From: Chiloscyllium plagiosum
Lineage: Eukaryota
DNA length: 33,207 nucleotides
NCBI RefSeq assembly: GCF_004010195.1
Contig: NC_057718.1
Location: 105,674,783-105,707,989 of the forward strand
Reading direction: 5' to 3'
The notes below the pieces were generated by a model. The model was not told where the DNA came from, did no database searches, and saw only the letters and a program-made list of their open reading frames with translations. The position numbers and the translations under genes were made by a program. Of the stretch, positions 1,093-22,248 are shown one piece after another. How positions within the stretch are numbered: position 1 is the first letter of the stretch; the number at the start of each line of letters is the position of its first letter.

Positions 1093-2501
1093 TGAGACAG
1101 AGGGTGGTGGTGGAGGATTGTTTTTCAGACTGGAGGCCTGTGACCAGTGGAGTGCCACAAGGATCGGTGTTGGGTCCACTGCTTTTTGTCATTCACATAA
1201 ATGATCTGGATGTGAACATAAGAGGTATAGTTAGTAAGTTTGCAGGTGACACCAAAATTGGAGGTGTAGTGGACAGTAAAGAAGCTTACCTCAAATTACA
1301 ACAGGATCTTGATCAGATGGGCTAATGGGTTGAGGAGTGGCAGATAGAATTTAATTCAGATAAATGAGAGGTGCTGCATTTTGGAAAAGTAAATCTTAGC
1401 AAGACTTGGAAAGGCAAGGACTGATTAGGGATAGTCAACATGGCTTTGTGTGTGGGAAATCATGTCTCACAAACTTGATTGAGTTTTTTGAAGAAGTAAC
1501 AAAGAGGATTGGTGAGGTCAGAGTAGTAGATGTGAATTATATGGACTTCAGTAAGGCGTTCGACAAGGTTCCCCATGGGAGACTGGTTAGCAAGGTTAGA
1601 TCTCACAGAGTACAGGGAGAACGAGCCATTTGGATACAGAACTGGCTCAAAGGTAGAAGACAGAGGGTGATGGTGGAGGGTCGTTTTTCAGACTGGAGGC
1701 CTGTGACCAGTGGAGTGCCACAAGGATCGGTGCTGGGTCCTCTACTTTGTCATTTACATGAACGATTTGGATACGAGCATAAAAGGTACAGTTAGTAAGT
1801 TTGCAGATGACACCAAAATTGGAGGTGTAGCAGACAGCGAAGAAGGCTACCTCAGATTACAACAGATCTTGATCAGATAGGCCAATGGGCCAAGAAGTGG
1901 CAGATGGAGTTTAATTCAGATAATGCGAGGTGCTGCATTTTGGGAAAGAAAATCTTAGCAGGACTTAGACACTTAATGGTAAGGTCCTGGGGAGTGTTGC
2001 TGAACAAAGAGACCTTTGAGTGCAGGTTCATAGCTCCTTGAAAGTGGAGTCGCAGGTAGATAGGATAGTGAAGGAGGCATTTGGTATGCTTTCCTTTATT
2101 GGTCAGAGTATTGAGTACAGGAGTTGAGACGTCATGTTGCAGCTTATTACATGCAATTCTGGTCTCCTTTCCATCAGAAGGATGTTGTGAAACTTGAACG
2201 GGTTCAGAAAAGATTTACAAGGATGTTGCCAGGGTTGGAGGATTTGAGCTATAGTGGAGAGGTTGAATTGGCTGGGGCTGTTTTCCCTGGAGCATTGGAG
2301 GCTGATGAATGACCTTATAGAGGTTTATAAAATCATGAGGGGCATAGATAGGATAAATAGACAAAGTCTCTTCCCTGGAGTCCAGAAGTAGAGGACAGAG
2401 GTTTAGGGTAAGAGGAGAAAGATATAAAAGAGACCTAAGGGGTGATTTTTCACGCAGAGGGTGGTACATATATGGAATGAGCCGCCAGAGGAAGTGGTGA
2501 A
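1093..2501 (+). mobile_element. CR1 LINE RT region, decayed, with internal ~310 bp duplication; interrupted at 2501 by a PLE
   Basis: SQHGF, SCLTNLIEFFEEVT, YMDFSKAFDKVPH, SGVPQGSVLGP and KFADDTK motifs with stops and frameshifts. Confidence 0.9.
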
Positions 2502-2592
2502 AACAAGGACTGCAGATGCTGGAAACCAGAGTCTAGATTAAAGTGGTGCAGGAAAAGCACAGCAGGTCAGGCAGCATCCGAGAAACAGGAAA

Positions 2593-2627
2593 ATCGACGT
2601 TTCGGGCAAAAGCCCTTCATCAGGAAT
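2593..2627 (-). ncRNA. Minimal type I hammerhead ribozyme motif (family A) in the PLE terminal repeat
   Basis: Reverse complement AUUC-CUGAUGA-A-GGGC(UUUU)GCCC-GAAA-CG-UC^GAUU: intact core, 4-bp stem II, palindromic ACGU stem III. Confidence 0.8.
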
Positions 2628-2641
2628 AGAGGCAGGGTGCC

Positions 2642-2947
2642 NNNNNNNNNNNNNNNNNNNNNNNNNNNNNNNNNNNNNNNNNNNNNNNNNNNNNNNNNNN
2701 NNNNNNNNNNNNNNNNNNNNNNNNNNNNNNNNNNNNNNNNNNNNNNNNNNNNNNNNNNNNNNNNNNNNNNNNNNNNNNNNNNNNNNNNNNNNNNNNNNNN
2801 NNNNNNNNNNNNNNNNNNNNNNNNNNNNNNNNNNNNNNNNNNNNNNNNNNNNNNNNNNNNNNNNNNNNNNNNNNNNNNNNNNNNNNNNNNNNNNNNNNNN
2901 NNNNNNNNNNNNNNNNNNNNNNNNNNNNNNNNNNNNNNNNNNNNNNN
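2642..2947. other. Assembly gap (306 N)
   Basis: Run of N. Confidence 1.
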
Positions 2948-3136
2948 CATGGCCAATTCACCTGACCTGCACATCTTTGGACTGTGGGAGGAAACCGGAG
3001 CACCCGGAGGAAACCCACGCAGACACGGGGAGAATGTGCAAACTCCACACAGTCAGTCGCCTGAGGCGGGAATTGAACCCGGGTCTCTGGCGCTGTGAGG
3101 CAGCAGTGCTAACCACTGTGCCACCGTACCGCCCAC
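2948..3136 (-). mobile_element. HE1-type tRNA-derived V-SINE (5' part) inserted in the PLE
   Basis: Reverse complement nearly identical to 12025-12212; Pol III A box tggcacagtgg and B box ggttcaattcc; V-domain gtttcctccgggtgctccggtttcctcccaca. Confidence 0.88.
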
Positions 3137-4679
3137 AATTGATTGGTGTGGGTGTCCCGGAGATGTTCCCTAAAGCGCTGGGTTAGGAGGCGTCCAGTCT
3201 CCCCAATGTAGAGGAGACCGCATCGGGAACAACGGATACAATAAATGATACTGGTGGATGTGCAGGTAAAACTTTGATGGATGTGGAAAGCTCCTTTGGG
3301 GCCTTAGTTGGAGGTGAGGGAGGAGGTGTGGGCGCAGGTTTTGCAATTCCTGTGGTGGCAGAGGAGGGTGCCAGGAAGGAAGGGTGGGTTGTAAGGGGGC
3401 GTGGACCTGACCAGGTCGTCACGGAGGGAACGGTTTTTGCAGAAAGCGGAAATGGGTGGGGAGGGAAATATATCCCTGGTGGTGGGGTCTGTTTGGAGGT
3501 GGCGGAAATGTCGTCGGATGATGTGGTTTATGCGAAGGCTGGTAGGGTGGAAGGTAAGCACCAGGGGGGTTCTGTCCTTGTTATGGTTGGAGGGGTGGGG
3601 TTTGAGGGCGGAGGGGCGGGATGTGGATGAGATGCGTTGGAGGGCATCTTTAACCACGTGGGAAGGGAAATTGCGGTCACTAAAGAAGGAGGCTATCTGG
3701 TGTGTTCTGTGATGGAACTGGTCCTCCTAGGAGCAGATACGGCGGAGGTGGAGGAATTGGGAATACGGGATGGCATTTTTGCAGGAGGTAGGGTGGGAAG
3801 AGATGTACTCCAGGTAGCTATGGGAGTCGGTGGGTTTGTAAAAAATGTCATTGTCAAATCGGTCATCATTAATGGAGATGGAGAGGTCCAGGAAGGGGAG
3901 GGAGGTGTCAGAGATGGTGAATTTAAGGTCGGGGTGGAATGTGTTGGTGAAGTTGATGAATTGCTCAAACTCCTTGCAGGAGCATGAGGTGGTGCCAATG
4001 CAGTCACCAATGTAGCGGAGGAAGCGGTGGGAGAGTGGTGCCAGTGTAACTACGGAAGATCAACTGCTCTACGTAGCCAACAAAGAGACAGGCATAGCTG
4101 GGGCCCATACGGGTGCCCATGGCTACCCCTTTGGTCTGGAGGAAGTGGGAGGATTCGAAGGAGAAATTGTTAAGGGTGAGGACCAGTTCGGCCAAACAAA
4201 TGAGTGCGTCGGTGGAAGGGTACTGTTGGGGACGTCTGGAGAGGAAGAAACGGAGGGCTTGGAGGCCCTGGTCATGGCGGATGGAGGCATAGAGGGTGGA
4301 TATCCATGGTGAAGATGAGGCGTTGGGGGCCAGGGAAACGGAAGTCTTGGAGGAGGTGGAGGGCATGGGTGGTGTCTCAAACATATGTGGGGTGTTCCTG
4401 GACTAGGGGTGATAGGACAGTATCAAGGTAGGTAAATAGGAGTTCGGTGAGGCAGGAGCATGCTGAGACAATGGGTCGGCCAGGGTGGTCAGGCTTGTGG
4501 ATCTTGGGAAGGAGGTAGAATCGGGCGGTGCGGGGTTCCCTGACTATGAGGTTGGAAGATCTCCGGAGGTGATGAGGTTCTGTATGGTCTGGGAGATGAT
4601 GGTTTGGTGATGGAGGGGTGGGGACATGGTCGAGGGGGCGGTACGAAGAGGTGTCTTCGAGTTGGCATCTGGCTTCAGC

Positions 4680-4862
4680 GAGGAAGTGGTGAAGGCTAAT
4701 ACAATTGAAACATTTAAAAGGCATGTGGATAGGTATATGAATAGGAAGGGTCTGTAGGGATATGGGCCAGGTGGGACTAGATTGGGTTGGGATATCTGGT
4801 CGGCATGGACGAGTTGGACCGAAGGGTCTGTTTCCGTGCTCTCTCTATGACTCAATGACTCT
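4680..4862 (+). mobile_element. Resumption and 3' end of the CR1 that starts at 1093
   Basis: Continues directly from the TSD (gaggaagtggtgaaggctaatacaattgaaacatttaaaaggc); ends ggaccgaagggtctgtttccgtgct...ctatgactcaatgactct. Confidence 0.85.
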
Positions 4863-4865
4863 AGT

Positions 4866-5028
4866 AGCAAGTACTAGCTTTCAGAATGCTGCTCCTTTGT
4901 CAATTACCTGATGAAGGAGCAGTGCTCAGAAAGCTAGTGCTTCTAAATAAACCTGTTGGACTATGACCTTGTGCTGTGCGATTTTTAACTTTGTCCACCC
5001 CAGTCCAACACCAGCTCCTCCACATCAT
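4866..5028 (+). mobile_element. Short PLE terminal fragment (family B) with inverted 5' piece
   Basis: 4866-4902 is a degenerate reverse complement of 4909-4942; tail matches 21632-21722. Confidence 0.7.
4905..4939 (+). ncRNA. Minimal hammerhead motif (family B)
   Basis: UAC-CUGAUGA-A-GGAGC(AGU)GCUCA-GAAA-GC-UA^GUG; palindromic AGCU stem III; one mismatch at the base of stem II. Confidence 0.7.
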
Positions 5029-5214
5029 AAGTTCACACAACTGAGTCTTATAGCCATATGCTGCAGCCATTTTGACAAGAGGGGATTGATGTGTTAATGA
5101 GGCAACTGTCCATACTGTTTAGCACAATGCATGAGGCCAATAAGTAATTTGTTATCTTGATTCTGATTCTTGGCAGCTAACCCCTCAAAATGGCATTCTT
5201 GGGTTTTCAGCAGG

Positions 5215-5605
5215 GGGCTGTCAGGACGTTTTTCACTGGAATGTAGGAGATTGAGGGGTGACTTTATAGGGCTTTATAAAATCATGATGGGCATAGAAAA
5301 GATGAATAATAAAGGTCTTTTCCCTTAGGTCGGGGAAGTTCAAAGCTAGGGGGCATATTTTTAAGGTGAGAAGAGAAAGTTTTAACAAGGACATGAAGAG
5401 CGGCTTTTTTATTGCACAGAGTGGTTTGTGTGTGGACTGAACTACCAGAGAAAATGATACAGTTATCGTGTATAAAAGATATTTGGACAAGTACATGAAT
5501 AGCAAAGGTTTGCAGGGATATGGGCCAAATGCAGACAAATGGAACATGGTCAGTGTGGATCAAAGGCTCTGTTTCCATGCTGTATGACTTTATGAATCTA
5601 TGACT
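5215..5605 (+). mobile_element. CR1 3' fragment, old
   Basis: gaggggtgacttta, ctagggggcatatttttaaggtgaga and (tatgac/tatgaa) tail similar to the other CR1 ends. Confidence 0.75.
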
Positions 5606-5771
5606 TGGGAGGGAAGCAGCCAGTTTGGCTGACAGGCTTACTGGTGAAATGTGGAAAGAAACTGGGTAGACAGCCTCCTGCTTTCTGTGAATACAGCAGA
5701 AAAAGGACATGAGGTCAATCAGATCACTCAGTGAAAGGTAATCCCCACTGAAGCCAGGTCAATTTAATTTT

Positions 5772-6088
5772 GAGTCCTGATGAAGGGCTTCTGTCCAAAA
5801 AATGTCAACTCCTCGGATGCTGCCTGACCTGCTGTGCTTTTTCCAGTGTCACATTTTTCAACTCTGACTCTCCAGCATCTGAGGAGAAAGTGAGGACTGC
5901 AGATGCTGGAGATCAGAGCTGAAAATGTGTTGCTGGAAAAGCGCAGCAGGTCAGGCAGCATCCATTCCTGAAGAAGGGCTTATGCCCGAAACGTCGATTC
6001 TCCTGTTCCCTGGATGCTGCCTGACCTGCTGCGCTTTTCTAGCAACACATTTTCAGCTCTCCAGCATCTGCAGTCTTCATTTTCTCCC
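5772..6088 (+). mobile_element. Nested family A PLE mini-elements (younger inverted-tail copy inserted in an older copy)
   Basis: Degenerate hammerhead at 5772-5810; 5882-5963 is an inverted copy of 6012-6088; 14-bp direct repeat ctctccagcatctg at 5868-5881 and 6057-6070. Confidence 0.75.
5964..5999 (+). ncRNA. Minimal hammerhead motif (family A)
   Basis: AUUC-CUGAAGA-A-GGGC(UUAU)GCCC-GAAA-CG-UC^GAUU. Confidence 0.78.
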
Positions 6089-6239
6089 TGTTTAATTCTT
6101 AGGCAGTCTATTAGCAATTTCAGTCACCAATCAGGACATGGTTTCTTAGTTTGTTATTGTTTCTTACTCAAGAGTGTGTGTAAAAACCTGGCACGTGGAA
6201 TATGTGGGGAATTGGGAGGTTATGCTTTTTGGCATTAAG

Positions 6240-7024
6240 AATAGAGGAGCTAAGTATTATTTAAATGGAGAAAGACTGCAGAATAGAGGGAGTAGAGAGT
6301 CCGCCTCCATGACTCACAAAAAGCTGGAATTCAAGTTCAACGGTTAATATGGAAGGCAAATGGAATGTCAGCCTTTATATCAAAGGGAATGGACATAAAT
6401 GGAGGGAGGCTCTGCTAAAACTATACAGGCATTGGTCAGACCATAGTTGGATTACTGTGAACAGCTTTAGGCTCCTTATCTAAGGAAAGATACGCTGGAA
6501 TTGGAGGCAGTCTAGACAATTTTCACAATGCTGTTACCTGTCATGGAGGGATTGTGTTAGGAGGACACGTTTAGTAGATTGGACCTTGGCTTGTTGGAAT
6601 ATTGAAGAATGAGAGGTGATCTTATTAAAACATGCAAGAGTTTTAGAGGACTTCACAAGATGGATGGTTGTTTTTCATCTAGAACTAGAAGGCATAATCT
6701 TAGAGTAAGAAGTTACATGTTTAAGACAGAAATGAGGAGAAATTTCTTCTCTCAGAGGATAGTGAATCTGTGGAATTCTTTACCACAGAGGGCTGTCAAC
6801 GCAGGGTCATTAAATATATTAAAGGCTGAGACAGATCAATTTTTAATCAGTAAGAGAATCAGATGTGATAGGTAAAAATCAGGAAAGTGGTTTGGATGCT
6901 GCCTGAACTGCTGTGCTCTTCCAGCACCACTAATCCAGAATTTAGAATAATCAGATCAGTCATGATCTCATTGAATGGTAGAGCAGATTTGATGGGCTAA
7001 TTGACCTAATTCTGATCTACGTAT
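6240..7024 (+). mobile_element. CR1 3' fragment, old; ~50 bp family A PLE-tail fragment inserted at 6891-6941
   Basis: ORF 6609..6875 MRGDLIKT..TRRHNLRVR..RRNFFSQRIVNLWNSLP; insert ggatgctgcctgaactgctgtgctcttccagcaccac matches the family A tail. Confidence 0.8.
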
Positions 7025-7094
7025 TTGATTTGATTTATTAATGTCACATGCCAGTAATTAACAAAGAGACGAAGGTAGGTGAGGACCTGAAAAC

Positions 7095-8721
7095 AGTCAT
7101 TATGGAAGAGGTTGTGTTGGGCAAGAAAATGGAGCGAAGGATAGACAAGTCTCCTTGCCCTGATAGAGTGCATCCAAGGTTCTAAAAGAGATGGTGGGAG
7201 AAACAGCAAGTGCACTTGTGGTAATTTTCCAAAATTCACTGGACTCTGGGGCAGTTCCAGCAAATTGAAAAACACCAAATGTGACGCCACTGTTTAAAAA
7301 GGGTGGTAGACAAAAGTCAGGGAATTATAGACTGGTTAGCTGAACTTCTGCAGTGGGGAAGACACTTCAGTCTATTACCAAGAAGAAATAGCAAGACATC
7401 TAGATAGAAATTGTCCCATTGGGCACACGCAGCATTGGTTTATAAAGGGCAGGTCATGCTTAACAAATCTCATGGAATTCTATGAAGACATTACTAACAC
7501 AGTGGACAACGGGGACCTAGTAGATGTGGTGAACCTAGATTTCCAAACGGCCTTCGACAAGGTGCCGCACAAGAGGCTGCTGCATAAGATAAAGATGCAT
7601 GGCATTATGGATAAAGTATTAGCATGGATAGAGGATTGGTTAACCAACAGGAAGCAAAGAATGAGGATAAATGAATGTATTCTGGTTGGCAATCAGTGAT
7701 CAGTGGTGTGCCTCAGGGATCAGTGTTGGCACCGCAATTATTCACAATTTATACAGATGATTTGGATGTGGGAACCACGTGTAGTGTGTCAAAATTTGCG
7801 GATGACACTAGGATGAGTGGCAGAGCAGTGTGCAGAGGACAGGGATACTTTGCAGAGGAACATAGATACTTTAAATGAGTGGGCAAAGGTCGGCAGATGG
7901 AATACAACATTAATAAATGTGAAGTCAACCATTTTGGTAGGTCTAACAGTAAAAAGGACTTTTACTTGCATGGTAAAAAGTTGCAGCATGTTGCTGTGCA
8001 GAGGAATCTGGGTGTCCTTGCGCATGAGTCACAGAAGGTTGGTCTGCAGGTATAACGAATGATTAGGAAGGCAAATAGAATTTTGTCCTTCATTGCTAAA
8101 GGGATTGAGTTTAAAAGCATGGAGGTTATGTTGCAGCTGTATAGGGTGCTAGTGAGGCTACACTGGTGTACTGTGTGCAGTTTTAGTCTCCTTATTTGAG
8201 AAAGGATGTACTGGCACCGGAGGAGGTGCAGAGGAGGTTCATTAGGTTGATTTGAGAGTTGAGGGGGTTGGGCTTATGAGGAGAGACTGAGTAGATTGGG
8301 ATTATATTCATTGGAATTTAGAAGAATGAGGGGGGTCTTATAGAAACATAAAATTCTGAAGGGAATATACAAGGTAGACATAGAGAGGATGTTTCCACTG
8401 GCAGGTGAAAAGAGGACAAGATGGCATCGCCTCAAAATTAGGGGGAACAGATTTAGGACTGAATCGAGAAGGAACTTCGTCGTCCAGAGGGTTGTGAATC
8501 TGTGGAATTCCTTGCCCAGTGAAGAGGTTGACGCTACTTCAGTGAACATTTTAAAGCTACAAGAGATTTTTCTTTGAACAATAAAGGAATTAAGGGCTAC
8601 AGAGAGAGAGCATGTAAGTGGAGCTGAGGCCACAAAAACATCAGCCATAACCTTACTGAATGGCAGAGCAGGCTCGAAGGGCCAGATGGCCCACTTTTGT
8701 TCCTAGTTCTTATGTTATGTT
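7095..8721 (+). mobile_element. CR1 LINE, RT to 3' end, inserted in the 3' UTR of a Rex1/Babar element
   Basis: LDFQTAFDKVPH, SGVPQGSVL, KFADDT, QRVVNLWNSLP; tail ttcttatgttatgtt. Confidence 0.88.
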
Positions 8722-9590
8722 CCGAAATATCGTGAAAAGTATTGTTTTGCTTGCTAATCAGACAAATCATACCTTGCATAAGTACATCAGATTAAGAGAA
8801 CAGAATGCAGAATATAGTTTTACAGGTATAAGAAGGTGCAGAGAAAGATCAATTCTAATAATATTAGAGACCCATTTGTAATTCTGATAACAGCAGGTAA
8901 GCTGTTCTTAAATCTGTCGGTATATGTTTTCAAGCATTTGCATCTACTGCCTGATAGAAGATGCTGGTAGAGAGTATAAATGGGGTGGAAAGGGTCTTTG
9001 ATTTTGTTGGCTGCTTTCCTAAGACAGCAGCAAGCGTAGTTGAAGTCAATGGAGGGAAGGCTGGTTTTCCTGATGGACTGTATTGTGTTCACAACTCTCT
9101 GTAATTTCTTGCAGTCCTAAGCACAGCAGATGTCAGACCGAGCTGTGCTGCATCCAAATAAAATGCTTTCTATGGTGCATCTATAAAAACTGCTATCGTG
9201 GACATGCCTAATTTCCTTCGCCTTCTGAGGAAGTAGAGCCGTTGGTGTAGCTTTCTTGACTGTTGCATCAACATGGATGGACCAGGATAAATCAGTGGTG
9301 ATATTTATTCGTAGAAACTTGAAGCTCTCCACCTCAGCACCACTGATGTAGACAGGGGCATGAACTCCACTCCGCTTCCTGAAGTTGATGACTAGCTCCT
9401 TTGTTTTGCTGACATTCAGGGAGAGATTGTTGTCTTTACACCATGCCAGTAAGCTGTCTATCTCCTTCCTGCACTGTCTTGTCATTGTTTGTATGGTGGT
9501 GTCATCAGCAAGTTTGTACTTGGAGTTAGAGCTGAATTTGGCCCCACAGTCGTGAGTGTAAAAGGAGTTAGAAAGAAGCTGAGTACACAG
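8722..9590 (-). mobile_element. Rex1/Babar-type LINE 3' part (its terminal tail is displaced to ~7025-7050)
   Basis: WCKDNNLSLNVSKTKELVINFRK, SFKFL.I.ITTDLSWS.H, FYRCTIESIL, IKDPFHP motifs on the minus strand. Confidence 0.8.
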
Positions 9591-9659
9591 TATAACTTAA
9601 GTGAAGTAGCTCAGATTTGAATATAACAGTGCGTAAAATAAAGCACCTTAACAAGTAGC

Positions 9660-10257
9660 TGGATTTCCATCATCATAACCACCTAATTTTGCTGTTGAAA
9701 CCCTCTTCCATGCCTTTGTTGCCTCCAAAATTCGCTATTCTACTGTACACCCAGCAAATATAACATACTACCTTCTGAACTTGCTCATCCAAATCCTGCT
9801 GCCTGTGCCTTCATTCACACCAAATTCCATTCACCCACCATCCCTGTGTTTACTGACCTCAATTGGATTCCATCGAATCAATGCCTTATAAAATTATCAT
9901 GTCTGTTTCCAAACTCTTAACCTTGTTAATGTCTATAAACTCATCCATTCCTGTAACGCTCTAAGATACTTGTGCTCTTCTAATTCAGGTGTCCTCCTGC
10001 TCACTTTTAATCATTCCACTATTAGAGGCCATGCTTTCAACTGCCTGGGGTCTAAGGCTGGAATTCCTATCCACGCCTCCTAAACCTTACTTTCCTCATT
10101 CAAATTAATCCTTCAAATCTGCCTCTGATCAAGATTTTGGTCATCTGTCCTAATATTTCTATGTGGCTCAGTGTCATACGTTTCTTTACACTTTGGAGGT
10201 GCTTTTGGATGTTTCAGCACAATAAAGGCATTCTAAACATATAAAGTTGTTATTGAA
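9660..10257 (+). mobile_element. Ancient L2 LINE 3' fragment
   Basis: gaaaccctcttccatgcctttgtt (ETL.HAFV), ctgacctcaattgg, ggctggaattcc and a terminal ataaagttgttattg typical of L2 ends. Confidence 0.65.
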
Positions 10258-10839
10258 CGTTATGGCAGTAAATGTAATATCCTGCTTAAACAGGAAGCTA
10301 TGGTTGTTTGGCCCTGGGTCACACTATCACATTTTTAGATGTTGAGAAAGGCACCTGCTACATATGGGAGCGACCAGCACCACCTACGGTGAAAAATAAG
10401 TCAGGTTTGAGATTTCTGTAGATTTTGACAGTGCTAGGATCTTAATTAACAGTGGTGGGAAAGGTGAATTAACATAATTAACATGTAAAATGGAACAAAA
10501 CAGACAACCACCAGATAAAGACAAGCAAAATCTGAAATGGTATGATTGGTAGCAAAAAAGAAAGTGAAGGAGAGAGAGTTTCAATTACAGACTTAGAAAA
10601 GATAGAAAAATAGGTAAGATAGAAATTCAACATTGAGGAGAAACTGCGTTAAAAAGAGACCAACAAGGAGAAACATACATTAGCATGACTTCAACTGGTA
10701 GAGAAACATACATTAGCATGACTATGTCCAGGAAGTCAGGTAAGGGCTTATAACTTTACAAAATTAAAATATTGCAAGTTTTAGAGACCACGAGCATTCA
10801 CGAGACTGAATGTATCATGGATAGCAGATATACATAGTA

Positions 10840-11010
10840 TATCTAAATATCTGTAAGGAAGAAGTAGATAAGATTCTTGACTTCCTAGGTAGCGAAAGAT
10901 GAGCAGAGATACACAGATTGCAGAGTTGAGGTTTAAAATCAGATCAGCCATAGTTTATTGAATGGGCTCAGGCTGGAAGGGCTGAGTCATCTATTCTTGC
11001 TCCTTGTTAA
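10840..11010 (+). mobile_element. Highly decayed CR1 3' UTR remnant
   Basis: atcagatcagccata...attgaatgg...gaagggctgagtcatctattcttgctcct resembles the other CR1 3' UTRs. Confidence 0.55.
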
Positions 11011-12008
11011 TATACAGAAAGGTGGTCACTCATAAGGCTAATGGTTCATAGGCAAGGAGGGGATGGTGACCACCAGACAGAGAAAGAGGACTAGACAGGC
11101 AGTGCAGGGGTCTCCTGTAGCTGTACCCCTGAAAAACAGATAGTTGCTTTGGATACTGATGGGAAGAATGGCCTCTTAGGTGAAAGTAGCAACAGCCAAA
11201 TTTATTGCATCACAAATCAGTTTGCTGCCTGAGAGAAGGAATAAGTGTGGGAATGCAATAGTAATAGGGGATTCAATTTAAGGAATATAGATGGACATTT
11301 ATGTGGCAGCAAACGAAACTCCAGGATTGTATGCTATCTCCTGGGTGCGAGGATTAAGGATGTCACAGTGACTACAGGACATTGTGGAGCAAAAGGGTGA
11401 ACAGTCAGTGGTTGTGGGAAACATCAGTACCATCAACATTGGGGGGAGAAAAAGAGACAAGGTCTTAAGGAGTATAATATAGGGAGTTAGAAAACAGTTT
11501 AAAAAGTAGGATCTCAATGGTAGTTATCGCAGGATTACTATCAGTGCCACATGTTGGTCAGAGTAGAAATAGGAGGATATTTCAGATGAATGTGTGGCTG
11601 GAAAGATAGTACAGAGCATGGTTTCAGATTCCAGAGATTTTGGGAGTGGATTTGGAGTAGGTGGAACCAGTACAAATCGGACGGTTTGTCCCTGGGCCGG
11701 ACTGGAACTGATGTCTTCGGAGAGTACTTGCTAGTGTGGTTGGGGAGGGTTTAAACTAAAATGGCAAGGGCTGGGAATATATACAGGGAGACAGAACAGA
11801 GGGGGACAAAGGCAAAAACAAAAGACAGAATGGGAAATAAGAGAAATGATAAACAGAGAATTTAAGTGCAAGAATTAAACAGGGTGTCAGTGCAAATAGG
11901 ACTAAATGCTAAAAAGTAACGCCTTAAGGCCTTGTATCTTAATAAGTGGAGCACTTGCAATAAAGTGGATGAATTTGTCGCACAAATTCACTTACAAATT
12001 CATCCACT

Positions 12009-12346
12009 GTGGGCGGCACGGTGGGTGGGCGGCACGGTGGCACAGTGGTTAGTACTGCTGCCTCGCAGCGCCAGAGACCCGGGTTCAATTCCCGCCTCAG
12101 GCGACTGACTGTGTGGAGTTTGCACATTCTCCCCGTGTCTGCGTGGGTTTCCTCCGGGTGCTCCGGTTTCCTCCCACAGTCCAAAGATGTGCAGGTCAGG
12201 TGAATTGGCCATGTTAAATTGTCCGTAGTGTTAGGTAAGGGTTAAATGTAGGGGTATGGGTGGTTTGCGCTTCGGCGGGTCGGTGTGGACTTGTTGGGCC
12301 GAAGGGCCTGTTTCCACACTGTAAAGTAATCTAATCTAAAAAAAAA
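12009..12346 (+). mobile_element. Full-length young HE1-type V-SINE
   Basis: A/B boxes, V-domain, CR1-like 3' tail gggccgaagggcctgtttccacactgta, (aatct)2 and A tail; many CpGs retained. Confidence 0.9.
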
Positions 12347-12799
12347 TAGATATCAATGGGTATGATACAGTTGAGGTTACAGAGACATGGCTGCAAGGTG
12401 ACCAGGGATGAGAATTGAATATCCCAGATGTACTCAGTTTTTAGGAAGGCCATGAAAAAAAGGAATAGCATTGCTGGTTAAACAGGAAATTATGCAACGA
12501 TGAGGAAGGATATTAGTTCTGGTGAAGTGAATTCTGTATGGGTTCAGCTTAGAAACACGAAGGGCCAGAGAACAAAAGATTTACAGACCATTAATCTGTT
12601 GCAATAATGCTGAGGAAGGCATTAAAAAGGAAATTAGAGATTCAAGAAATTAAGGTTTCAATGTGATCACGGGGGTCTTTAAGCTTCATTGGGCAAATCA
12701 AATCAATAATACCAAAGAGGAAGAATTCCTGGAGAAGGTGTGGGGTGGTTTTCTGGACCAATAAATTGAGGAACCAACTCGAGAACTGACCAATCTACA

Positions 12800-12947
12800 A
12801 TTGCAGGCGCTAGAGATCGGACACAAAAACAGAAATTGCTGGCGAAACTCAGTCAGGAAGCACCTGCGTGGAGAAAGCAAAGTTAACATTGAGTCATCTT
12901 TGGAGACTCTTCATCAGAATCCAGTTTTGCCAGCATTTTCTGTATTA
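12800..12947 (-). mobile_element. PLE mini-insertion (family C) with a degenerate hammerhead at 12881-12920
   Basis: Reverse complement AUU-CUGAUGA-A-GAGUC..GACUC-(GA lost)AAUGUUAAC; tail similar to 21955-22019; inverted piece at 12922-12946. Confidence 0.65.
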
Positions 12948-14823
12948 TTAGAGCACAGGCCAATCCCAGATTGGGCACTGTGTGATGAGAAAGAAATAAT
13001 TGACAATCTAGCTGTGTAAGACCCCTTGAAGAGTGACCATAATATAATAGAATTCTCCATTAAGATGGAGAGCAACACTGTTGATTTTGAGACTAGGGCA
13101 CAATCTAAATAAAGGGAACGATGGTGGTGTGAGCTCACTCTGATAAATTGGGAAACATTACTTAAAGAGATCATGTTGAAGAGGTAATGGCAAACATTTA
13201 AAGAGTGTATTGTCGAACTGCAACAATTGTTCATTTCTGTCTGGTACAAAAGTAAAGTAGGAAAGGTGGTCCAACCATGGCTAACAAGGAAAATTAGGGA
13301 TAGTATTAGATCCAAGGAAGGCACATACAAATTGGACAAAAAAAGCAGCAGGCCTGGGGAGTGGGAGCAATTTAGAAAGAAGGACAATAATGGAATTGTT
13401 TAAGAAGGAAAATAGAGTAAGAGAATAAGCTTGCAGACTGATACAAATGGATTATAAAAGCTTCTATGGGTAACTGAAGAGAATCAGGTTAATGTAGTCA
13501 AATGTAGGTCCCTTACAGTCAGAAACAGAGCAAGTTATTATGGGGAACTAAAAGATGGCAGACCAGTTAAATTCATATTTTGTTTCTGTCTTCACAAAGG
13601 ATGATACAAATAGCATCACAAAAATGTTGGGGAACACAGGGTCTAGTGAGAGTGAAGAACTGAAGGTAATCAGTATAGGTTTGAAAATGGTGTTGGGGAA
13701 TTTGATGGTATTGAAGGCCGATAAATCATCGGGCCAGATAATCTATATCCCAGAGTATTTAAGGAAGTGACCCTAGCAATACGATCGTCTATCAAGTTTC
13801 CATCGACACTGGAACAATTCTTACAGATTGGAAGTAGCTAATATAACCCGACCAATTAGAAAATAAGGGCATAGAGAGAAAATGGGGAATTATAGACCAG
13901 TTAGCCTGACATCACTGATGAGGAAAATGCTAGAGTCTTTTATAAAAGATTTAACAGCAGAGATTTAACTTGGATATCAGTGACAGAATTGGAAGGAGAA
14001 GTCATACTTGACGAATCTACTGGAACTTTTCGAGAATACGCCAATTAGAGCTGATAAGGGGAAGCCAGTGGTTGCTATTTACTTGTATTTTAAGGAGGTC
14101 TTGGATAAGATCCCACACGGAAATTTGCATGCAAAATTAAAGCACATGGGATTGGGGTTAATGTACTGACATGGATAGAGAACTGGTTGGCAGACAGGAA
14201 ACAAAGAGTAGGAATAAATCGGTCTCTTTACAGAGTGTCAGGCAGTGTCTAATAGGGTACCTCAGGGCTCAGTGCTGGATCCCAGTTGTTCAAAATATAG
14301 ATGCTTTAGATTTAGAGGAGAAAGCTAAATGTAATAACTTTGTGTTTGAAGATGACACAAAGTTGGGTGGGAGGGTGAACTATGAAGTGTCTGCAGAGAT
14401 ATTTTATATGATAGAGGCAAGTTGAGTGGGCAAAATCGTGGAAGGTGATATATATAATATGGATAAATATGAGGTTATCCACTTTGTTTGTATAAACAGG
14501 AAGGCAGATTATTATCAGAATAGTGATAGATGGGGAGATGGAGAAGTGCAGTGAGACCTAAGTGGCCTTGCATAGTGAAAGTAAGCATGCAGGTACACAG
14601 GCAGTGAAGGTGGTAAATGGCATGTTAGCTTTCATCATGAGGGGATTTGAGTGTATGAGCAGGGATGTCTTTTGCAATTTTACAGGGCTTTGGTGAGACC
14701 AAGGAGTATTGTGTGCAATTTTGGTCTCCTTTTCTTCGGAAAGAAGTTCGGTTTATGGAGGGAATGCAACAAAGGTTTACCTGACTGATTCCTATGATGG
14801 CAGGACTGATGTATGAAGAGAGG

Positions 14824-14990
14824 AGAAAGTGAAGACTGCATATGTTGGAGATCAGAGTTGAGAATGTGGTGCTGGAAAAGCACAGCAGGTCAGGCAGCAT
14901 CCGAGGACCAGGAGAACCGATGTTTCGGGCATAAGCCCTTCATCAGGAATGAGGCTCATTCTCCTGGTCCTCGGAGCCACACTCTTGACT
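14824..14990 (-). mobile_element. PLE mini-insertion (family A)
   Basis: TSD ctgatgtatgaagagagg (14806-14823) / ctaatgtatggagagagg (14991-15008); body matches 2502-2627 and 5882-5963. Confidence 0.8.
14916..14950 (-). ncRNA. Minimal hammerhead motif (family A), stem III CpG-decayed
   Basis: Reverse complement AUUC-CUGAUGA-A-GGGC(UUAU)GCCC-GAAA-CA-UC^GGUU. Confidence 0.7.
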
Positions 14991-15675
14991 CTAATGTATG
15001 GAGAGAGGCTGGGTCAGGTAGAACTATATTCATGAGAGTTTAGAAGGATGAGTGGGATCTCATACGAACATACAAAATTCAGACAGGATTGGGGCAAATA
15101 CAGGAAGGATGTTCCTGATGACTGAAGACTCTAGATTCAGGCATCATAATCTAAGGATATGGGTAAGCCATTTAGGACTGAGACCAAGGAGAAACTTCTT
15201 CAGACAGAGAGTGGCAAGCCTGTAGCCACAAGAAGCTGAGATCCAAACACTGATTGTTTTCTAAGAGTTAGATTTAGTTCTTATGGTAAAGGGATCAAAG
15301 GGTTAGGGTTAAGGCATGGGGAGAGAGAATAGGAACAGGATACTGAGATGGATGATTAAAAATCATCATACTGAATGGCAGACCAGGCTTGAAGAGCTGA
15401 ATAGTGTACTCCTGTTTCTAATTTCTGTTTCTATGAATTGCATTCAATGTTCTGCCATTGTTTACCAGAACATTTGCCTTCAGGGGTGGGAGAGCACTTT
15501 TTACATTCCAACAACTTAATGTTATCACTGCAGTCAAAAATATTATTAAATCTGATCGAGCAGGAGTATTCACATAACTTGCATTTTGCTCTCATATTCA
15601 AGAATTCAAATTACAGTATTTCACAATCAGTCCCATAATCAACGGAGTCAACCTTAGATAGTGGCAAATTATATA

Positions 15676-17358
15676 TAGAATATAGAATAGAATATAGAAC
15701 ATAACAGCACAGTACAGGCCCTTCGGCCCTCGACGTTGTGCCGACCTGTGAGACCAATCTGAAGCCCATCTAACCTACACTATTCCATTCTCATCCAAAT
15801 GTTTTTCCAATGACCATTTAAATGCCCTTAAAGTTGGCAAGTCTACTACTATTACAGGCAGAGCATCCTACGCCCCTACTACTCTCTGAGAAAAGCAATT
15901 ACCTCTGCCATCTGTCCTATATCTATCACCCCTCAATTTTAAGTTATGTCCCCTCGTGCTAGCCATCACCATCTGAGGAAAAAGGGTCTCACTGTCCATC
16001 CTATCTAACCCTCTCATTATCTTTTATGTCTCAACCTCTCAACCTTCTTCTCTCTAACGAAAACAGCCTCAAGTCCCTCAGCCTTTCCTCATAAGACCTT
16101 CCCGCCATAGCTGCAACATTTTTCAGCACTATCCACAGCTCCACCGACCTCAGTGCCATCTGCAAATTTACTAACCCATCCTTCAGTGCCATCATCCAGG
16201 TCTTTTGTAAAAATGACAAACAGCAGTGGACCCAAAACAGACCCTTGCTGTTCACCACTAGTAACTGAACTCCAGGATGAACATTTCCCATCAATCACCA
16301 CCCTTTATCTTCTTCCACCCAGCCAATTTCTGATCCAAACTGCTAAATCACCCTCAATCCCATGCCTCTGTATTTTCTGCAATAGCGTACCGTGGGAAAC
16401 CTTATCAAATGCCTTACTGAAATCCATATACACCACATCAACCACTTTACCCTCATCCACCTGTTTGGTCACCACCTCAAAGTACTCAATAAGGTTTGTG
16501 TGGCACGACCTACCCTTCACAAAATCGTGTTGACTATTTCAAATCAACTTATCTCTTTTGAGATAATTGTAAGTTCTATCTCTTAGAACTTTTACCAACA
16601 CTTTACCCACAACCGAAGTAAGGCTCACTGCTCCATAATTACCAGGGTTATCTCTACTCCCCTTCTTGAACAAGGGAACAACATTTGCTATCTTCCAGTC
16701 TTCTTGCACTATTCCTGTAGACAATGATGACATAAAGATCAAAGCCAAAGGCTCTGCAATCTCCTTCCTGGCTTCCCAGAGAATCCAAGGATAAATCCCA
16801 TCCAGCCCAGGAGACTTATCTATTTTCCCACTTTACAGAATTTCTAACACCTCCTCCTTCTCGTGAACCTCAATCCCATCTAGTCTAGTAGCCTGTATCT
16901 CAGTATTCCCCTGGACAACATTGTCTTTTTCCAGTGCGATACTGATGAAAAATATTCATTTAGCACTTCTTCTATCCCCTTGGACTCCATGCACAACTGC
17001 CCACTATTGACCTTGACTGGCCCTGTTCTTACTCCAGTCATTCTTTTATTCCTGATATACCGGTAGAAAGCCTTCAGGTTTTCCTTGATCCAATCTGCCA
17101 ATGACTTCTCATGTCCTTTCCTGGCTCATCTTAGTTCTCTCTTTCGGTCTTTCCTGGCTAGCTTGTAACTCTAAAGCATCCTAACTGAGCCTTCACATCT
17201 CATCCTAACATAAGTCTTCTTCTTCCTCTTGACAAGAGATTCAACTTCTTTAGTAAATTGCGGCGCCCTTGCTCTACCACTTCCTCCTTGCCTGACAGGT
17301 ATGTACTTATCAAGGACACATAGTAGCTGTTCCTTGAATAAGCTTCACATTTCAATTG
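15676..17358 (-). mobile_element. 5'-truncated CR1 with an internal deletion; same subfamily as 24750-28702
   Basis: IKENLKAFYRYIRNKR, EDWKIANVVPLFKKG, YMDFSKAFDKV, KFADGT; (ttcta)n-type tail at 15676-15700. Confidence 0.9.
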
Positions 17359-17689
17359 TTGGAGTTGAAGTAACAGTTACATCAGCCATGATATTATTGT
17401 TTGGTGGAGCAGGTTCAAGGATCTGAATGGTCTACTCCTTTGTCTTATTCATATCTTCATAATCCTGTAAATGATTTAAATTAAACTATCAAAAGTCCTG
17501 GTGCTCCAAATGAATTATTCCGAAAAGTGTAGTATATAGAGTCCTAACTCTACATTCTAACCAGTGATGATACTGTGTTCACTTTTTTAAATATTCAAAA
17601 TTTATCAACACATTCAGTTTAATTAATAAACAGTGTGGATCTCCAGAATTCTCAGTAATTTGCTTTGAGTGTTTAATTCACTGCTACTT

Positions 17690-18290
17690 GCCTTCTAGGA
17701 TTATCCTCCTCAAACAAGTTCTGCTCTTGTCTCCAACAGGATATCTATTTGAATTTTTCATCTTATTCACCTCCATTCCTTTCCATTTCTCTCTTGCCCT
17801 TTGATAATGAGTTTAGCAAAACCCACTTTACTAAATCTCCTTCCTCAGTAACTGCCTCTGGTTCCAACACATCCCACATTGGTTTCAATTGAAGTCCTAA
17901 ACTTCATGTTTCAAATCCACCCAGAATCATGGGCATCCCAGTGACACACAACACTCCTTGGACAGCTGATCTTGTGGCATCATGCGATCCACCCTTAATG
18001 CCATGTGTAACCACATGTACCCACAAAACCTCTCTCGCCATCAGCATCACTTCCCGCAGTCTCAAAGCTGTCCTCGGCACCAGTTCCATTTCATTCTTCA
18101 TCTCATTAAACACTCTTCCACTTTCCTCTTCCCTTCACAGGTTAAGGAACATCTGCTCCAACAACACATAGGTACTGATGCCCCTCCCTTTCTCTCTGAT
18201 CCCATTTCTTCTTCTAACCCTCCTCTTGGAGTTCTGAAGAAGTCATATCGGATTTGAAATATTAACTTTGCTCCTCTGTCAACGTAAGCT
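17690..18290 (+). mobile_element. Old PLE remnant (putative N-terminal region joined to a family C hammerhead remnant at 18230-18267)
   Basis: AGUU-CUGAAGA-AGUC..GAUUU-GAAA-UA-UU-AACU core remnant; pyrimidine/His-rich decayed ORF upstream. Confidence 0.45.
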
Positions 18291-18291
18291 G

Positions 18292-18860
18292 TGCTATGGA
18301 CCAGACCAAACTCCCTCAAAATATGTCAAGGATGTAGCCTGGACCCTAACTTTTATCTCATTTAAAAGAAAGTTTAAAGTGCTGTGTGCCAGATGTAATT
18401 TGACTGAGGGTCAAACTACTGGGCTTTAAGCAAAATACACTTTATTCTTACACTACAGTTAAAATACAAAAAACAGAGTTGGTGTAACTTTAATTCTATC
18501 GATAGATTCTTCCAATATAGCAGCATCCCTTAGCAAAGGCAAATTCAGCAAAACAATGTTATTCTCATATGAAGTCTTCTCACTCTAATCCAGCGGAACG
18601 AAATGATGAAAGAAACAGTCTAGAAGCAGAGAGAGACCTCAAGCTTTATGCAGCAGCAGAGAGAGAGCTGAATCTAGCAACTTCAGCTCCAAAACCCCAA
18701 CTTCAACAGCTGAAAGCAAAACTAAAACCCTGGGTCTGAGAGCGCCCAACTCTACCCACTCATGGATTTTTTTTGCCTACTTTTTAAAAAAATCCCAAAG
18801 TTTTTTTACTCCATTTTCCATGGAGCTATATTGCTTTCCAAACTACTAAGGGTCATAACT
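18292..18860 (-). mobile_element. Possible solo LTR
   Basis: Imperfect terminal inverted repeat tgctatgg...tcataac, ~570 bp, AATAAA on the minus strand near 18441; no clear TSD. Confidence 0.35.
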
Positions 18861-18979
18861 TAATAATTGCATGTATGTTTTTACACTTAATTTTTATTGG
18901 TGTGTGTGGAGAAATTCCTTTTATGAATAATAATCTTAGGGTAATAGCACAGATTTATCTAACATTTTAAAAAATATGA

Positions 18980-19340
18980 CAGAGATAAGGCGATCTAATT
19001 GAACCATACAAGAGTTATACAGAACTCAACAGAATAAGTGTAGAACATTTCCCTGGCTTAGAGTGAAAGAAGTCTCAGGATAAGGGGACAGGCGATTTAA
19101 GATTGTGATGAGGAGGAATTTCCTCCCTCAGCGGGTGGTAAAAGTTTGGAATTGTGGGGTAGAGGTTCGGTCATTCAGGCATTAAGACAAAGATCAACAG
19201 ATTACTCCAGGTTAAAAATATCAAGGGATATGGGAATAGCATGGGAAAATGGAAGTGAGGTCAAAGATCAGCCATGATCTTGTTGAATGGTTGAGCAGAC
19301 CTGAGGGGCTGAATAACTTATTCCTGCTACTAGTTCTGAA
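18980..19340 (+). mobile_element. Old CR1 3' fragment
   Basis: ggcgatctaattgaa, gatgaggaggaatttc, gatcagccatgatcttgttgaatgg. Confidence 0.7.
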
Positions 19341-20773
19341 ATTCCTATACATAATCTATCTATCATGTTCACAATAAGGGACAATGAATTTAAAAAAATG
19401 AAAAAAAATGAAACCATCAAGGGAAATTAAAAACTACAAGTGTTTACATGGCTTTCCTTTAATTTTTTGATATGCTACATATTAAAGTTTAAAATTTTTG
19501 TGAAGATCTGTAGCTCGGGGGCTACATATAAAAGTTGCATATTTTTAGGAAACAAAGTGGAATTTTAGTTACATAAGTCCAAAATAAATATTTAGCAATT
19601 CAATTAAAATTTCTTCAGCCCACAATAAATATTAGAAGCATTTCTTTATTTTGAATTCTTGAAAGACATGAAAGAGTGGTCACAAGTCCTTTTTAAAAAG
19701 CCTTGCGTTCTCCTTCTGCAAAACTCTAATACAGCAATGACAGGTTGATTGACAGACATCAATGCTGTCCATCAACAATAACGGCAACACTGGCAAAACT
19801 AAATATTTCTCAATACACAATACACTAATATTCATCAGCCAAGATCAGATTACAAGTAAATTCACGTGCTTTCAAAAACAGACTGTAAGAAACTATTAGG
19901 ATTTATGAATAATTTCATTTATTAATTGATATGCATCTGAGGCATTATTTAAACATGCATTTTCTTCTCGATTTCAATGAACTTAAACAGGGGTTATGAT
20001 CTGACCTGGTATTGGCTGTCACATAACAGTCATTCCTTCAATTTAACCTTTACTGCCCTTGCAATGATCACCTGCAACTTCATTTTAACTGGTAAATGGA
20101 GAGAAGGCAGAAAGACTCTGGCCTCAAAGAAAGCATTCATTCATTTTGTGTTGTTGTGTTAATTGGTTAGGAGGAGGAGATGTCAGAAACTTTATGCATT
20201 TGCATAGTTACTATACACAGGCATTGTTCTCCATTTTGCATTCATTCCAAACAAGGGCAGTAGGGGTTATCAGTCAGAACTGTGAGAAGAGAGGAAATAA
20301 ACCTGCAGGAAGCAACCAAGATACTCAATGCAGCTTTTAAACAAGAGGCAAAAGCACAAGGAAGAAGCCAGCTGCACAAAAGGAAAAATCTGTTTAAGAC
20401 AGCTCTGAAAACAGCTCTGCCTCATTTAATGACTCACAGCACAAATAAAATTTATAGAAATCAGTAATGCAATGGACAGATGAAGGTTTCTGTTAAAGCT
20501 TTTTCTCACCTTAAAAAAAAATCTGTTCCACAATACATGGATGAAAGCCACAGCAAGGTATACTGTATTACAGAGACTTTCTTCCAGAAGATTTAAAACG
20601 TTTGTGACCAATGCAAACAGGAGTCGATAATGCATCAGATAAACCGCAGTGGAGATTACCTTCCGCAAGCAGCAATTATAACCTTACAAAACAACCTCAC
20701 CTTCCAGGGATTACTAAAAGAGCACTGGTGAAACCAAAATTGCAGACATGTCATTTTCTGTGGTGGTTCTTAC

Positions 20774-20822
20774 CTTTTTGTTGTTTTCTTTAATATCCTG
20801 AGGATTCAGAGATTTGTAGTCA
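20774..20822 (-). CDS. EHBP1: EH domain-binding protein 1, internal 49-nt coding exon (CH domain: (I)DYKSLNPQDIKENNKK)
   Basis: ccccag|TGACTACAAA...AAAAAG|gtaaga; phase 2 to phase 0, joins the preceding exon in frame (AT|T = Ile); peptide matches vertebrate EHBP1 as I recall it. Confidence 0.93.
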
Positions 20823-21627
20823 CTGGGGCGAGAGTTTGGTATGCGCGGGGAAGGGGGGGTGGTAGGGAAGAGAAAATGATGAGAAAACAATGAATAGTTA
20901 ATACTCACTTCAAATGAAACACATACAACATGAAAATATTGATAGCAATAATGATATTATATAACAAGCAGTGATTTCATTGTAAAGCAATCAACAAAAC
21001 AAGCAGAGTGGAAAATAAAGAAACCTCAGAATCAAATTTTTCCCCCAAAGCCTTTCCATCTACCAGCGAAGAGAAGACATGAACATTAGATGCGAGCCTT
21101 TTAAAACACATTTAACATGCAGTAATCCTTTACTGTCAGCACACAGATGGGGTTCAGCTTATTGTCTTATCCATTTTAATAACAACATTTTATTTGTAAA
21201 TTTTGAAGGACAATTTAAAACATTATTTTAGCAATACAAAACCAAAGTGACAAAAAAGGGTTTCTCTTCCATCAGTAAAAAGGCAAACATTTCACACCAT
21301 GGGGGCAAGGAAAGATGTGAGGATGAAATTTAAATTTAGTAGAGGTACAAAGCTACTACACTCCCCCCAACCTATTAAGCTCCCTGCCCATACACAACAC
21401 GCCTGAGACAGTTGCTTCTGTTACATGCCCTGCCTAATACAGGCCCACTCAGTCACTTTATCACCTGTTACCATATCTAAACCCATTACAGCCTCCCGCT
21501 TCAATATATGCCCTGCCCTTTACAATCTCACACTGTTACATGTCCTGCGTAATCCATTACACATTCTTCAGAACACAATCCCCCGTCTTTACACACCCCT
21601 CCCAATGCAGCCTGCTTTGTTACACAC

Positions 21628-21722
21628 TAGTGTGCTTCCAATTAAACCTGTTGGACTATAACCTGGTGTTGTGTGATTTTTAACTTTGCACACCCCAGTC
21701 CAACACCGGCATCTCCAAATCA
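21628..21722 (+). mobile_element. PLE mini-insertion (family B tail only)
   Basis: Perfect 11-bp TSD ttgttacacac (21617-21627, 21723-21733); matches 4937-5027. Confidence 0.85.
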
Positions 21723-21917
21723 TTGTTACACACGGTGATTGATACAGTTCTGTTCCATTACACGTCCTCCCTCTGCGCTATTACATCCCGCCCCATTTTC
21801 CCATTTGACCTTCAATCAACTGTGTTCTATAACAGAAAGATTATCTGCAAATGCCCAATATGCATCCTCTGGCAAAGTTGAATTTCACCCAACTGATTGG
21901 AAAGAAATGATACACAG

Positions 21918-21953
21918 ATTCTGAGGAAGGGTCACCTGACCCGAAATGTTAAC
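21918..21953 (+). ncRNA. Minimal hammerhead motif (family C)
   Basis: AUU-CUGAGGA-A-GGGUC(ACCU)GACCC-GAAA-UG-UU^AAC. Confidence 0.7.
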
Positions 21954-22019
21954 TTTGATTTCTCTTTAGAGATGCTACCAAACCTGCTGAGCTTTGTCAG
22001 CAACTTCTGTTTGTGTTTC
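21918..22019 (+). mobile_element. PLE mini-insertion (family C) headed by a hammerhead motif
   Basis: Perfect 10-bp TSD tgatacacag (21908-21917, 22020-22029). Confidence 0.85.
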
Positions 22020-22069
22020 TGATACACAGGTCAGTTTTTTATATTAGTCAAGCTACGTTCAACACTCAC

Positions 22070-22248
22070 ATCAAGTCTGACCGGAAATGATTTAGAATTG
22101 CACAGAAAGCTAGTCCATTTCTCCATGATGTCGTGAAATTTGTGATCTTCACTCCTCTGTAGTTTTTTGTTACTTCTTTACACCAGGCAAGCAGTGACTG
22201 AGTGGCGTTTGGCTTTTTCCCCAGAACAGGACTTGGGATTGGGCTCGG
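22070..22248 (-). CDS. EHBP1: EH domain-binding protein 1, internal 179-nt coding exon (start of the calponin-homology domain)
   Basis: tttttttccttag|CCG...TTGAT|gtgagt; translates [59 protein letters not shown](I), with the CH-domain signature [20 protein letters not shown]. Confidence 0.95.

Follow-up and report, generated by a model that had tools for sequence, protein, structure and literature searches.

The hammerhead ribozyme motifs in a 33,207-nucleotide (nt) stretch of the genome of the shark Chiloscyllium plagiosum (NC_057718.1, positions 105,674,783 to 105,707,989 of the forward strand; hereafter the window), which lie within the gene EHBP1, are the hammerhead-plus-tail ends (pseudo-long terminal repeats, pLTRs) of at least three lineages of autonomous-type, protein-coding Penelope-like elements (PLEs). 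Our reading of the copies of 90 to 130 bases, to which we give a probability of roughly 60%, is that reverse transcriptase (RT) begins within the tail, close to the front of a capped RNA that has not been cut, and then runs off the 5' end of this template.

An earlier note on the window had proposed that very abundant, ribozyme-headed units of ~100-150 bp and at least three lineages derive from Penelope elements, and this was borne out. Its further proposal, that the units are distinct non-coding derivative families, was not, as each family was found to have a parent that encodes RT and a GIY-YIG endonuclease and ends in the same sequence. A broken RT-linker-GIY-YIG frame of the window (3133-4688, minus strand) points toward the ribozyme at 2623, and a family A core was detected downstream on the same strand in 17 of the 30 loci found by use of the window RT piece. 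For family B, 25 loci were picked by the end of the B open reading frame (ORF), and these had the core downstream in 15 cases and RT/linker/GIY-YIG sequence upstream in 9. Family A2 has a parent of its own, and the family C parent was found at one locus (L146), where RT and GIY-YIG are followed by the C core 440 nt on. Identity of the parents to the A1 ORF was 60%, 42-53% and 31-38%. Copies with an intact core continued into the parent 3' untranslated region (UTR) in 24 of 92 cases for family A and 16 of 41 for family B, and copies with parent UTR were found for all of A1, A2 (including its youngest variant), B and C1.

RT followed by a C-terminal GIY-YIG domain was identified in the window frame, in locus L128 and in the B and C parents. 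The L128 frame (L128:3741-5915) is an unbroken Penelope-like frame of 725 codons that emerges from an assembly gap and matches RT (PF00078) proteins; close named relatives of the element protein occur in Chiloscyllium punctatum (91%), Mobula (69%) and Rhincodon (68%). Young copies are nearly all in N gaps of the assembly, a position that points to recent activity. A CX2-5CXXC linker between RT and endonuclease, which is a Neptune feature common to Nematis (PMC8557442), is present in the A1 and B parents and is not intact in the single decayed C parent. As judged from their predicted proteins, the parents are endonuclease-bearing (EN+) PLEs with a Neptune-type linker, and the EN+ PLE features of a hammerhead in the terminal repeat, a tail of 30-40 bp at one end and an inverted truncated copy were all present.

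Hammerheads were searched for by the core CUGANGA-A-(stem II)-GAAA, and positions are quoted as C3 of this core. Five intact cores were detected in the window, at C3 2623(-), 4908(+), 5968(+), 14946(-) and 21921(+), versus a mean of 0.22 and a maximum of 3 in 200 dinucleotide shuffles. Four decayed copies were also found, at 4862-4902(-) and at C3 5777(+), 12917(-) and 18234(+), of which a covariance model recovered three at E<1e-3; the one missed is of family B, a family absent from the model. All nine had been listed in the earlier note, numbered by motif edge and not by C3, and the stem variants described there were likewise found in the window sequence. Only two of the nine copies (C3 2623 and C3 5968) retain all hammerhead features, with the G10.1-C11.1 pair missing from the copy at C3 4908 and the stem-III CpG from those at C3 14946 and C3 21921. 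The scan with Rfam, which the earlier note had named as a check, gave no hammerhead match anywhere in the window, even at E<=5, and its sole match was a chance one to mir-335 on the palindrome at 5928-6037; Rfam hammerhead models presuppose a folded stem III.

The motifs are minimal type I hammerheads, as had been claimed, with a CUGANGA...GAAA...UH core and a stem II closed by G10.1-C11.1. An extra base between positions 9 and 10.1 is A in families A, B, C and E and U in family D. Stem III is palindromic and loop-less (ACGU or AGCU), and the AUGU form of families C and E probably represents CpG decay. Stem I differs by family (UC/GA, CAC/GUG, GUU/AAC, GUC/GAC), and the variants of stem II are GGGC/GCCC, GGAGC/GCUC, GGGUC/GACCC and GAGUC/GACUC. 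The stems covary, as the earlier note had held: in a set of 12 hand-picked copies (family B excluded, two rows incomplete), six of nine pairs changed on both sides, 92.7% of cells were paired, and none of 500 shuffles reached the score. The core was also found to be more constrained than the tail and loops, with non-CpG mismatch at 3.3-3.6%, 7.1-7.5% and 12-17%, respectively, in copies aligned without requiring an intact core. The stem-III CpG was lost from 11 of 43 A1, 17 of 45 A2 and 12 of 17 C copies. Low core mismatch coupled with this CpG loss suggests constraint on the masters and decay after insertion; the inserted copies decay as neutral DNA does. Nearest-neighbour energies, which ignore tertiary contacts, make the double-hammerhead fold less favourable than the best dimer by 5-11 kcal/mol, in agreement with the low activity published for the class, in which minimal motifs displayed no cleavage as monomers and poor cleavage as dimers (PMC4209133).

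Outside the window, a family D (L181:3016-3063, L188, L191:5253-5300, L200, L203 and L207) has a longer, bulged stem II with an extra U; its young copies are near-identical, a GIY-YIG frame lies upstream of them and a TATA-like box stands ~50 nt ahead of the core, and its 5' ends are more loosely linked to the ribozyme edge. Family E was observed at L137 and L174.

Abundance was estimated from a sample of 100 segments, each of 10 kb and placed at a round coordinate on one of 44 large contigs, with 961,721 non-N bases in all and small contigs excluded, with Poisson limits on extrapolated totals and family E left out of the copy counts. This sample was found to hold 305 tail-bearing copies, 154 of them covering the core, which amounts to one core-covering copy per 6.2 kb and one intact core per 14.6 kb; the window holds 9 copies in 33 kb. 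An intact core with a four-pair stem II was present at 67 sites, 66 of these of family type (3 in total in ten shuffles), and 32 of the 67 also had palindromic stem III, UH and stem I (0 in ten shuffles). Extrapolation gives 114,000 (78,000-161,000) complete motifs, 235,000 (182,000-299,000) intact cores and 1.08 million tail-bearing copies. In the full 3.56-Gb genome, an exact 30-letter family A pattern had 49,325 matches and a family B pattern had 4,080, and the reversed control of each had none; for family C, a gapped pattern (38 matches) fell far below a narrower ungapped one (1,739 matches) and was not taken as a count. The covariance model, built without family B, had 155 matches in the sample, and the copies with their matched UTR make up ~4% of it (39,072 bases).

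The 5' ends of the copies cluster at the ribozyme edge. Of the copies extending as far as the ribozyme, 89 of 126 in family A, 21 of 30 in family B and 22 of 28 in family C were found to end within -14 to +12 of C3. The ribozyme cut site itself had no excess of 5' ends compared to the flanking 10-nt bins (family A, 5 versus 8 and 5; B, 4 versus 5 and 3; C, 5 versus 13 and 12). In A2, the non-parental base that precedes the boundary was G in 64 of 100 copies at -5 versus 12 of 100 at each of -4 and -7, as tallied by eye in the first 100 listed of 7,031, 7,529 and 1,684 matches, respectively. When inverted-arm and long copies were removed, G was detected in 25 of 39 A2, 18 of 31 B (at -9) and 23 of 47 C (at -5) copies, with 26% expected (p of 5e-7, 1e-4 and 6e-4), compared to 4 of 20 and 7 of 34 at neighbouring A2 positions under the same filter. 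A script check of the first 30 loci of each search found G in 11 of 21 A2 and 8 of 12 B copies. The extra G, detected in three of the four families checked (A2, B and C; not A1), stands immediately 5' of an A within a pyrimidine-C-A context, which we take to resemble the initiator of polymerase II. In Drosophila Penelope, the promoter lies within the pLTR, and in L1 and SVA an untemplated 5' G has been taken as the copied cap (PMC4859970). The A that follows the extra G is probably a polymerase II start, and the G a copied cap.

Several other sources of the edge and its G were considered and rejected. A splice acceptor behind the 5' edge is at odds with A2, B and C, in none of which an AG precedes the boundary; a jump of the polymerase to the 5' end of cut RNA suits A2 only and not B or C; and a target preference for G is absent at neighbouring boundaries. 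Family D was weaker than hoped as a control without pile-up, with 6 of 15 ends at the edge.

The 3' ends fall into two classes ~35 nt apart, at ~+85-92 and ~+120-127, which correspond to the pair of RT start sites between which the 'tail' of Anolis Poseidon lies (PMC11167929). Half of the sampled copies (138 of 277, or 69 pairs) are arranged head to head. By contrast to this arrangement, a same-strand neighbour within 40 nt was found for only 2 of the 277, neither of them a double ribozyme, and one tandem pair was detected among targeted loci (L071). A tandem dimer in cis is not possible for the paired copies because the partners are on opposite strands. One arm of a pair is typically long (tailed) and the other short (tail-less), as observed in 52 of the 59 of 69 pairs that could be classed (50% expected, p 5e-10) and in 101 of 113 pairs over all loci; the window pair at 5882-6085 is an exception with two long arms. 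Non-consensus letters were common to paired arms at 160 of 353 positions (45%) versus 500 of 3860 (13%) in unrelated arms. Target duplications of at least 10 nt flank 55 of 139 pairs versus 0 of 685 controls, and pairs often have duplications of 10-17 nt. That only one arm of an inverted pair bears a tail is qualitatively known (PMC8557442, PMC3846280). The simplest reading of the pairs would be one priming per end of a staggered cut, both on a single RNA.

The insertion route that we favour would run as follows. The RNA would start at an A inside ribozyme stem I, 4-8 bases before the core, and would be copied uncut, as reported for Anolis in vitro (PMC11167929). Priming at the first tail would yield the mini-copies, and the two ends of the staggered DNA cut would each prime at a different RT start site of a single RNA. 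The template could be transcribed from full elements or else from whichever copies retain a promoter. Selection on the ribozyme would act only in active masters, where it may need a partner or an element protein, and the inserted copies would be dead on arrival.

An alternative that we regard as unlikely is that the copies arose by ordinary 5' truncation from long RNAs on which priming took place at the last tail, with the polymerase stalling or switching template past the hairpin. Truncation at the 5' end is usual in these elements (PMC8557442), long copies occur in every family and the edges range from -12 to +12; the G is missing from A1, and family D ends at the edge in 6 of 15 cases. Stalling would not, however, be expected to confine a G to a single position (64% versus 12% and 12%) or to vary that position by family (-5 in A2 and C, -9 in B), nor does it fit the fall of A2 matches from 7,031 at edge -4 to 1,684 at edge -6.

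Several observations weigh against priming at the first tail of a capped RNA. Family A1 at -5 has no excess of G (13 G, 18 A, 69 C), and the commonest edge in unbiased family A is -5 with C, such that the start is not one sharp point. The family D ends make some hairpin stalling possible. The G counts of families B and C came without neighbouring-position controls, and the listed junction classes were judged by eye from 12-15 letters. The 232 copies with a full tail share no downstream extension, except for duplicate loci and one unrelated repeat. Read starts did not pile up in the RNA data described below, a 3' poly(A) library being unable to show starts. Target duplications are seldom found at solo copies (5 of 130), and the letters common to paired arms could also stem from gene conversion. 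In addition, a first tail that runs into an ORF was found in none of 20 long loci, most of which are broken by N gaps.

We consider it rather improbable that the copies are self-propagating, non-autonomous mini-elements, similar to retrozymes or short interspersed nuclear elements (SINEs), that use their own pLTR promoter and Penelope protein supplied in trans. This explanation accommodates the capped start as well and differs only in the locus that produces the RNA. Tail-bearing copies, 305 in the sample, are far more numerous than ORF remnants, which occur in 17 of 100 loci and make up 0.9% of bases, pLTRs are able to act in trans (PMC3846280), and animal retrozymes have been proposed as non-autonomous PLE derivatives (bioRxiv 10.64898/2026.07.22.740005). 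Set against these points, subfamilies A1, A2, B and C1 all include copies with parent UTR, tandem arrays are missing (2 same-strand neighbours among 277 copies), and the templates were uncut at the ribozyme, unlike retrozyme monomers.

The earlier note had placed the copies in EHBP1, and the placement proved correct. The exon at 22084-22245(-) encodes a calponin-homology (CH) domain (nearest EHBP1, E 5e-26, versus best non-EHBP1, 1e-12), that strand also carries bMERB exons 157 and 179 kb past the start of the window, and all hammerhead copies are within the gene because these exons bracket them on one strand. This position carries no meaning; nothing ties the copies to EHBP1, and their density is genome-wide. 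That intronic hammerheads control EHBP1 or other host pre-mRNAs through self-cleavage is very improbable, since the complete motif at C3 2623 on the EHBP1 sense strand and the ~110,000 complete motifs of the genome are to be set against damage to 7 of 9 window copies, CpG decay of stem III, partners on the opposite strand, a double-hammerhead fold well above the best dimer and the published inactivity of minimal motifs as monomers and poor activity as dimers (PMC4209133).

RNA was examined by use of one single-cell poly(A) run (X19), of which ~2% was read with duplicates kept. Family B reads were strand-biased, numbering ~1,980 versus 290 where coverage peaks. Of the 3,362 family B reads placed, 1,644 had poly(A) at +53 to +58. 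The genomic sequence at this site is not A-rich, and the site is ~10-15 nt beyond an AATAAA or ATTAAA, one of which is present in 32 of 41 family B copies. Mixed variants among the reads point to several source loci. The reads cross the family B cleavage site uncut, the cut 3' piece being too short to appear. The poly(A) site is upstream of both RT start sites, and RNAs that end there could thus not be templates. Reads of A2 were of both strands, with no B-like poly(A) ends among the reads listed. The family B signal region was located at L144:5749-5771 (+37 to +58 from C3) and, in the window, at 4937-4942 and 21632-21723; both window copies with the poly(A) signal are antisense to EHBP1.

The ribozyme class is known (Cervera and de la Pena 2014; PMC4209133), as the earlier note had stated, and the families may be undescribed, as it had supposed: our literature search, the scope of which did not extend to Repbase, Dfam, subscription journals or the supplements of the 2014 paper and of the bioRxiv report, found no shark report on them. 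The minimal hammerheads described in metazoan PLE pLTRs (PMC4209133) are likewise of type I with no stem-III loop and a palindromic 15.2/16.2, have an extra base between 9 and 10.1 and a G10.1-C11.1 pair, form covarying families, and occur mostly as solo copies tied to truncated elements, with opposite-strand pairs; most motifs were described there as solo and 'probably related to truncated PLEs'. Counts in that study were ~4,000 for coelacanth and ~9,000 for Xenopus, versus 110,000 complete motifs and 235,000 intact cores here, with descriptors that differ. Its main text, as far as covered here, has no shark, 5'-edge pile-up or extra G.

EN+ PLE insertions (PMC8557442, PMC3846280) have a pLTR, an inverted 5'-truncated copy and a 30-40-bp tail at one end, as found here, and EN+ PLEs including Anolis Poseidon (PMC11167929) share the target duplications, initiator-like pLTR sequence, uncut RNA template and two start sites. 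Unlike in these accounts, most insertions here are little beyond the end module, the rule of one tailed and one tail-less arm was counted (113 pairs), the inferred RNA start overlaps ribozyme stem I, and in family B polyadenylation takes place at a site ahead of the two RT start sites. Non-LTR retrozymes (PMC7229834; bioRxiv 10.64898/2026.07.22.740005) are similarly short, non-coding and pLTR-related, with a type I hammerhead, and the 126,247 motifs of axolotl are of the same order of absolute number; per Mb the motifs are ~7x denser here than in the 28-Gb axolotl genome, by descriptors that differ. Retrozymes, however, are tandem repeats with a unit from cut site to cut site, and the copies here are solo or inverted and start upstream of the core. 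The supplements of the bioRxiv report name one chondrichthyan with retrozyme counts. The extra 5' G of L1 and SVA, read there as the copied cap, and L1 twin priming, in which inversion arises via both DNA ends (PMC4859970), have counterparts here, but the primings would fall at two fixed internal sites and the overlapping copies give a palindrome, not an inverted split. What is added here are the 5'-edge stops with the extra G, the one-tailed pair rule and family B polyadenylation beyond the ribozyme.

Features of the window, with coordinates in the 33,207-nt stretch.
Feature	Position	Strand	Remarks
Family A1 pLTR end	2496..2641	-	Complete minimal hammerhead with full tail (C3 2623; cleavage predicted after 2596); probably belongs to element 3133-4688 as its 3' end, with N gap 2642-2947 and an inserted repeat between (layout as in 17/30 RT loci)
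Broken 5'-truncated Penelope-like ORF	3133..4688	-	RT motifs, CX4CXXC linker, GIY-YIG endonuclease; stops and frameshifts; PF01541 above cut-off
Family B inverted arm, decayed hammerhead	4862..4902	-	Ends short of poly(A) signal
Family B copy	4903..5028	+	Hammerhead C3 4908 with a broken 10.1-11.1 pair; full tail and AATAAA signal; antisense to EHBP1
Older family A copy, decayed core C3 5777	5770..5881	+	Next element at its tail
Family A2 inverted arm, +43 to +122, without ribozyme	5882..5964	-	
Family A2 copy, starts 5 nt before C3 5968	5963..6085	+	Complete minimal hammerhead and full tail
Family A tail fragment, without ribozyme	6894..6941	+	
Family C copy, decayed core C3 12917	12799..12923	-	
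Family A copy, C3 14946	14821..14954	-	Full tail, stem-III CpG gone
Decayed family C copy, C3 18234	18228..18290	+	G directly 5' of A at -4; parent has C there
Family B piece without core	21632..21723	+	Poly(A) signal and full tail
Family C copy, C3 21921	21918..22019	+	10-nt target-site duplication 21908-21917 / 22020-22029
EHBP1 calponin-homology exon	22084..22245	-	

Further observations were made in the window. The young A2 pair adjoins the tail of the older family A copy (5770-6085), which fits insertion into or beside existing terminal repeats. A 21-nt inverted piece at 14955-14975 has a private variant in common with the adjoining copy (14821-14954), ends at neither RT start site and resembles fold-back synthesis at a 5' junction. 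Copies of a SINE-like repeat, presumably V-SINE/HE1, lie at 2948-3135, 12012-12340 and 23424-23740, one of these between the Penelope ORF and the terminal repeat. By eye, we take 30000-33207 to be like a long interspersed nuclear element (LINE), with an ORF1-type frame at ~30190-30990 and an endonuclease frame of which the start is present, and much of the remaining window to be CR1-type LINE debris.

Taken as a whole, the findings may be read as a fossil record of Penelope insertion in vivo, in which RNA starts in stem I, cap-ended mini-copies are mass-made from the first tail with one start site per DNA end, the hammerhead set is the densest found on record and family B has spread well over 100,000 ready poly(A) signals; that all of these parts hold together we put at slightly short of even odds. 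The mechanism of PLE transposition and the role of the hammerhead are described as still open (PMC11167929). The value of the present set is in its numbers and mechanistic footprints, and not in the ribozyme class or the EHBP1 location. About a million end modules would record where the RNA started, its uncut state when copied and the use of one RT start site per DNA end, and each of these footprints leads to a base-precise prediction. For the host, family B at ~50 copies per Mb could end transcripts, and its used poly(A) site may shape their 3' ends.

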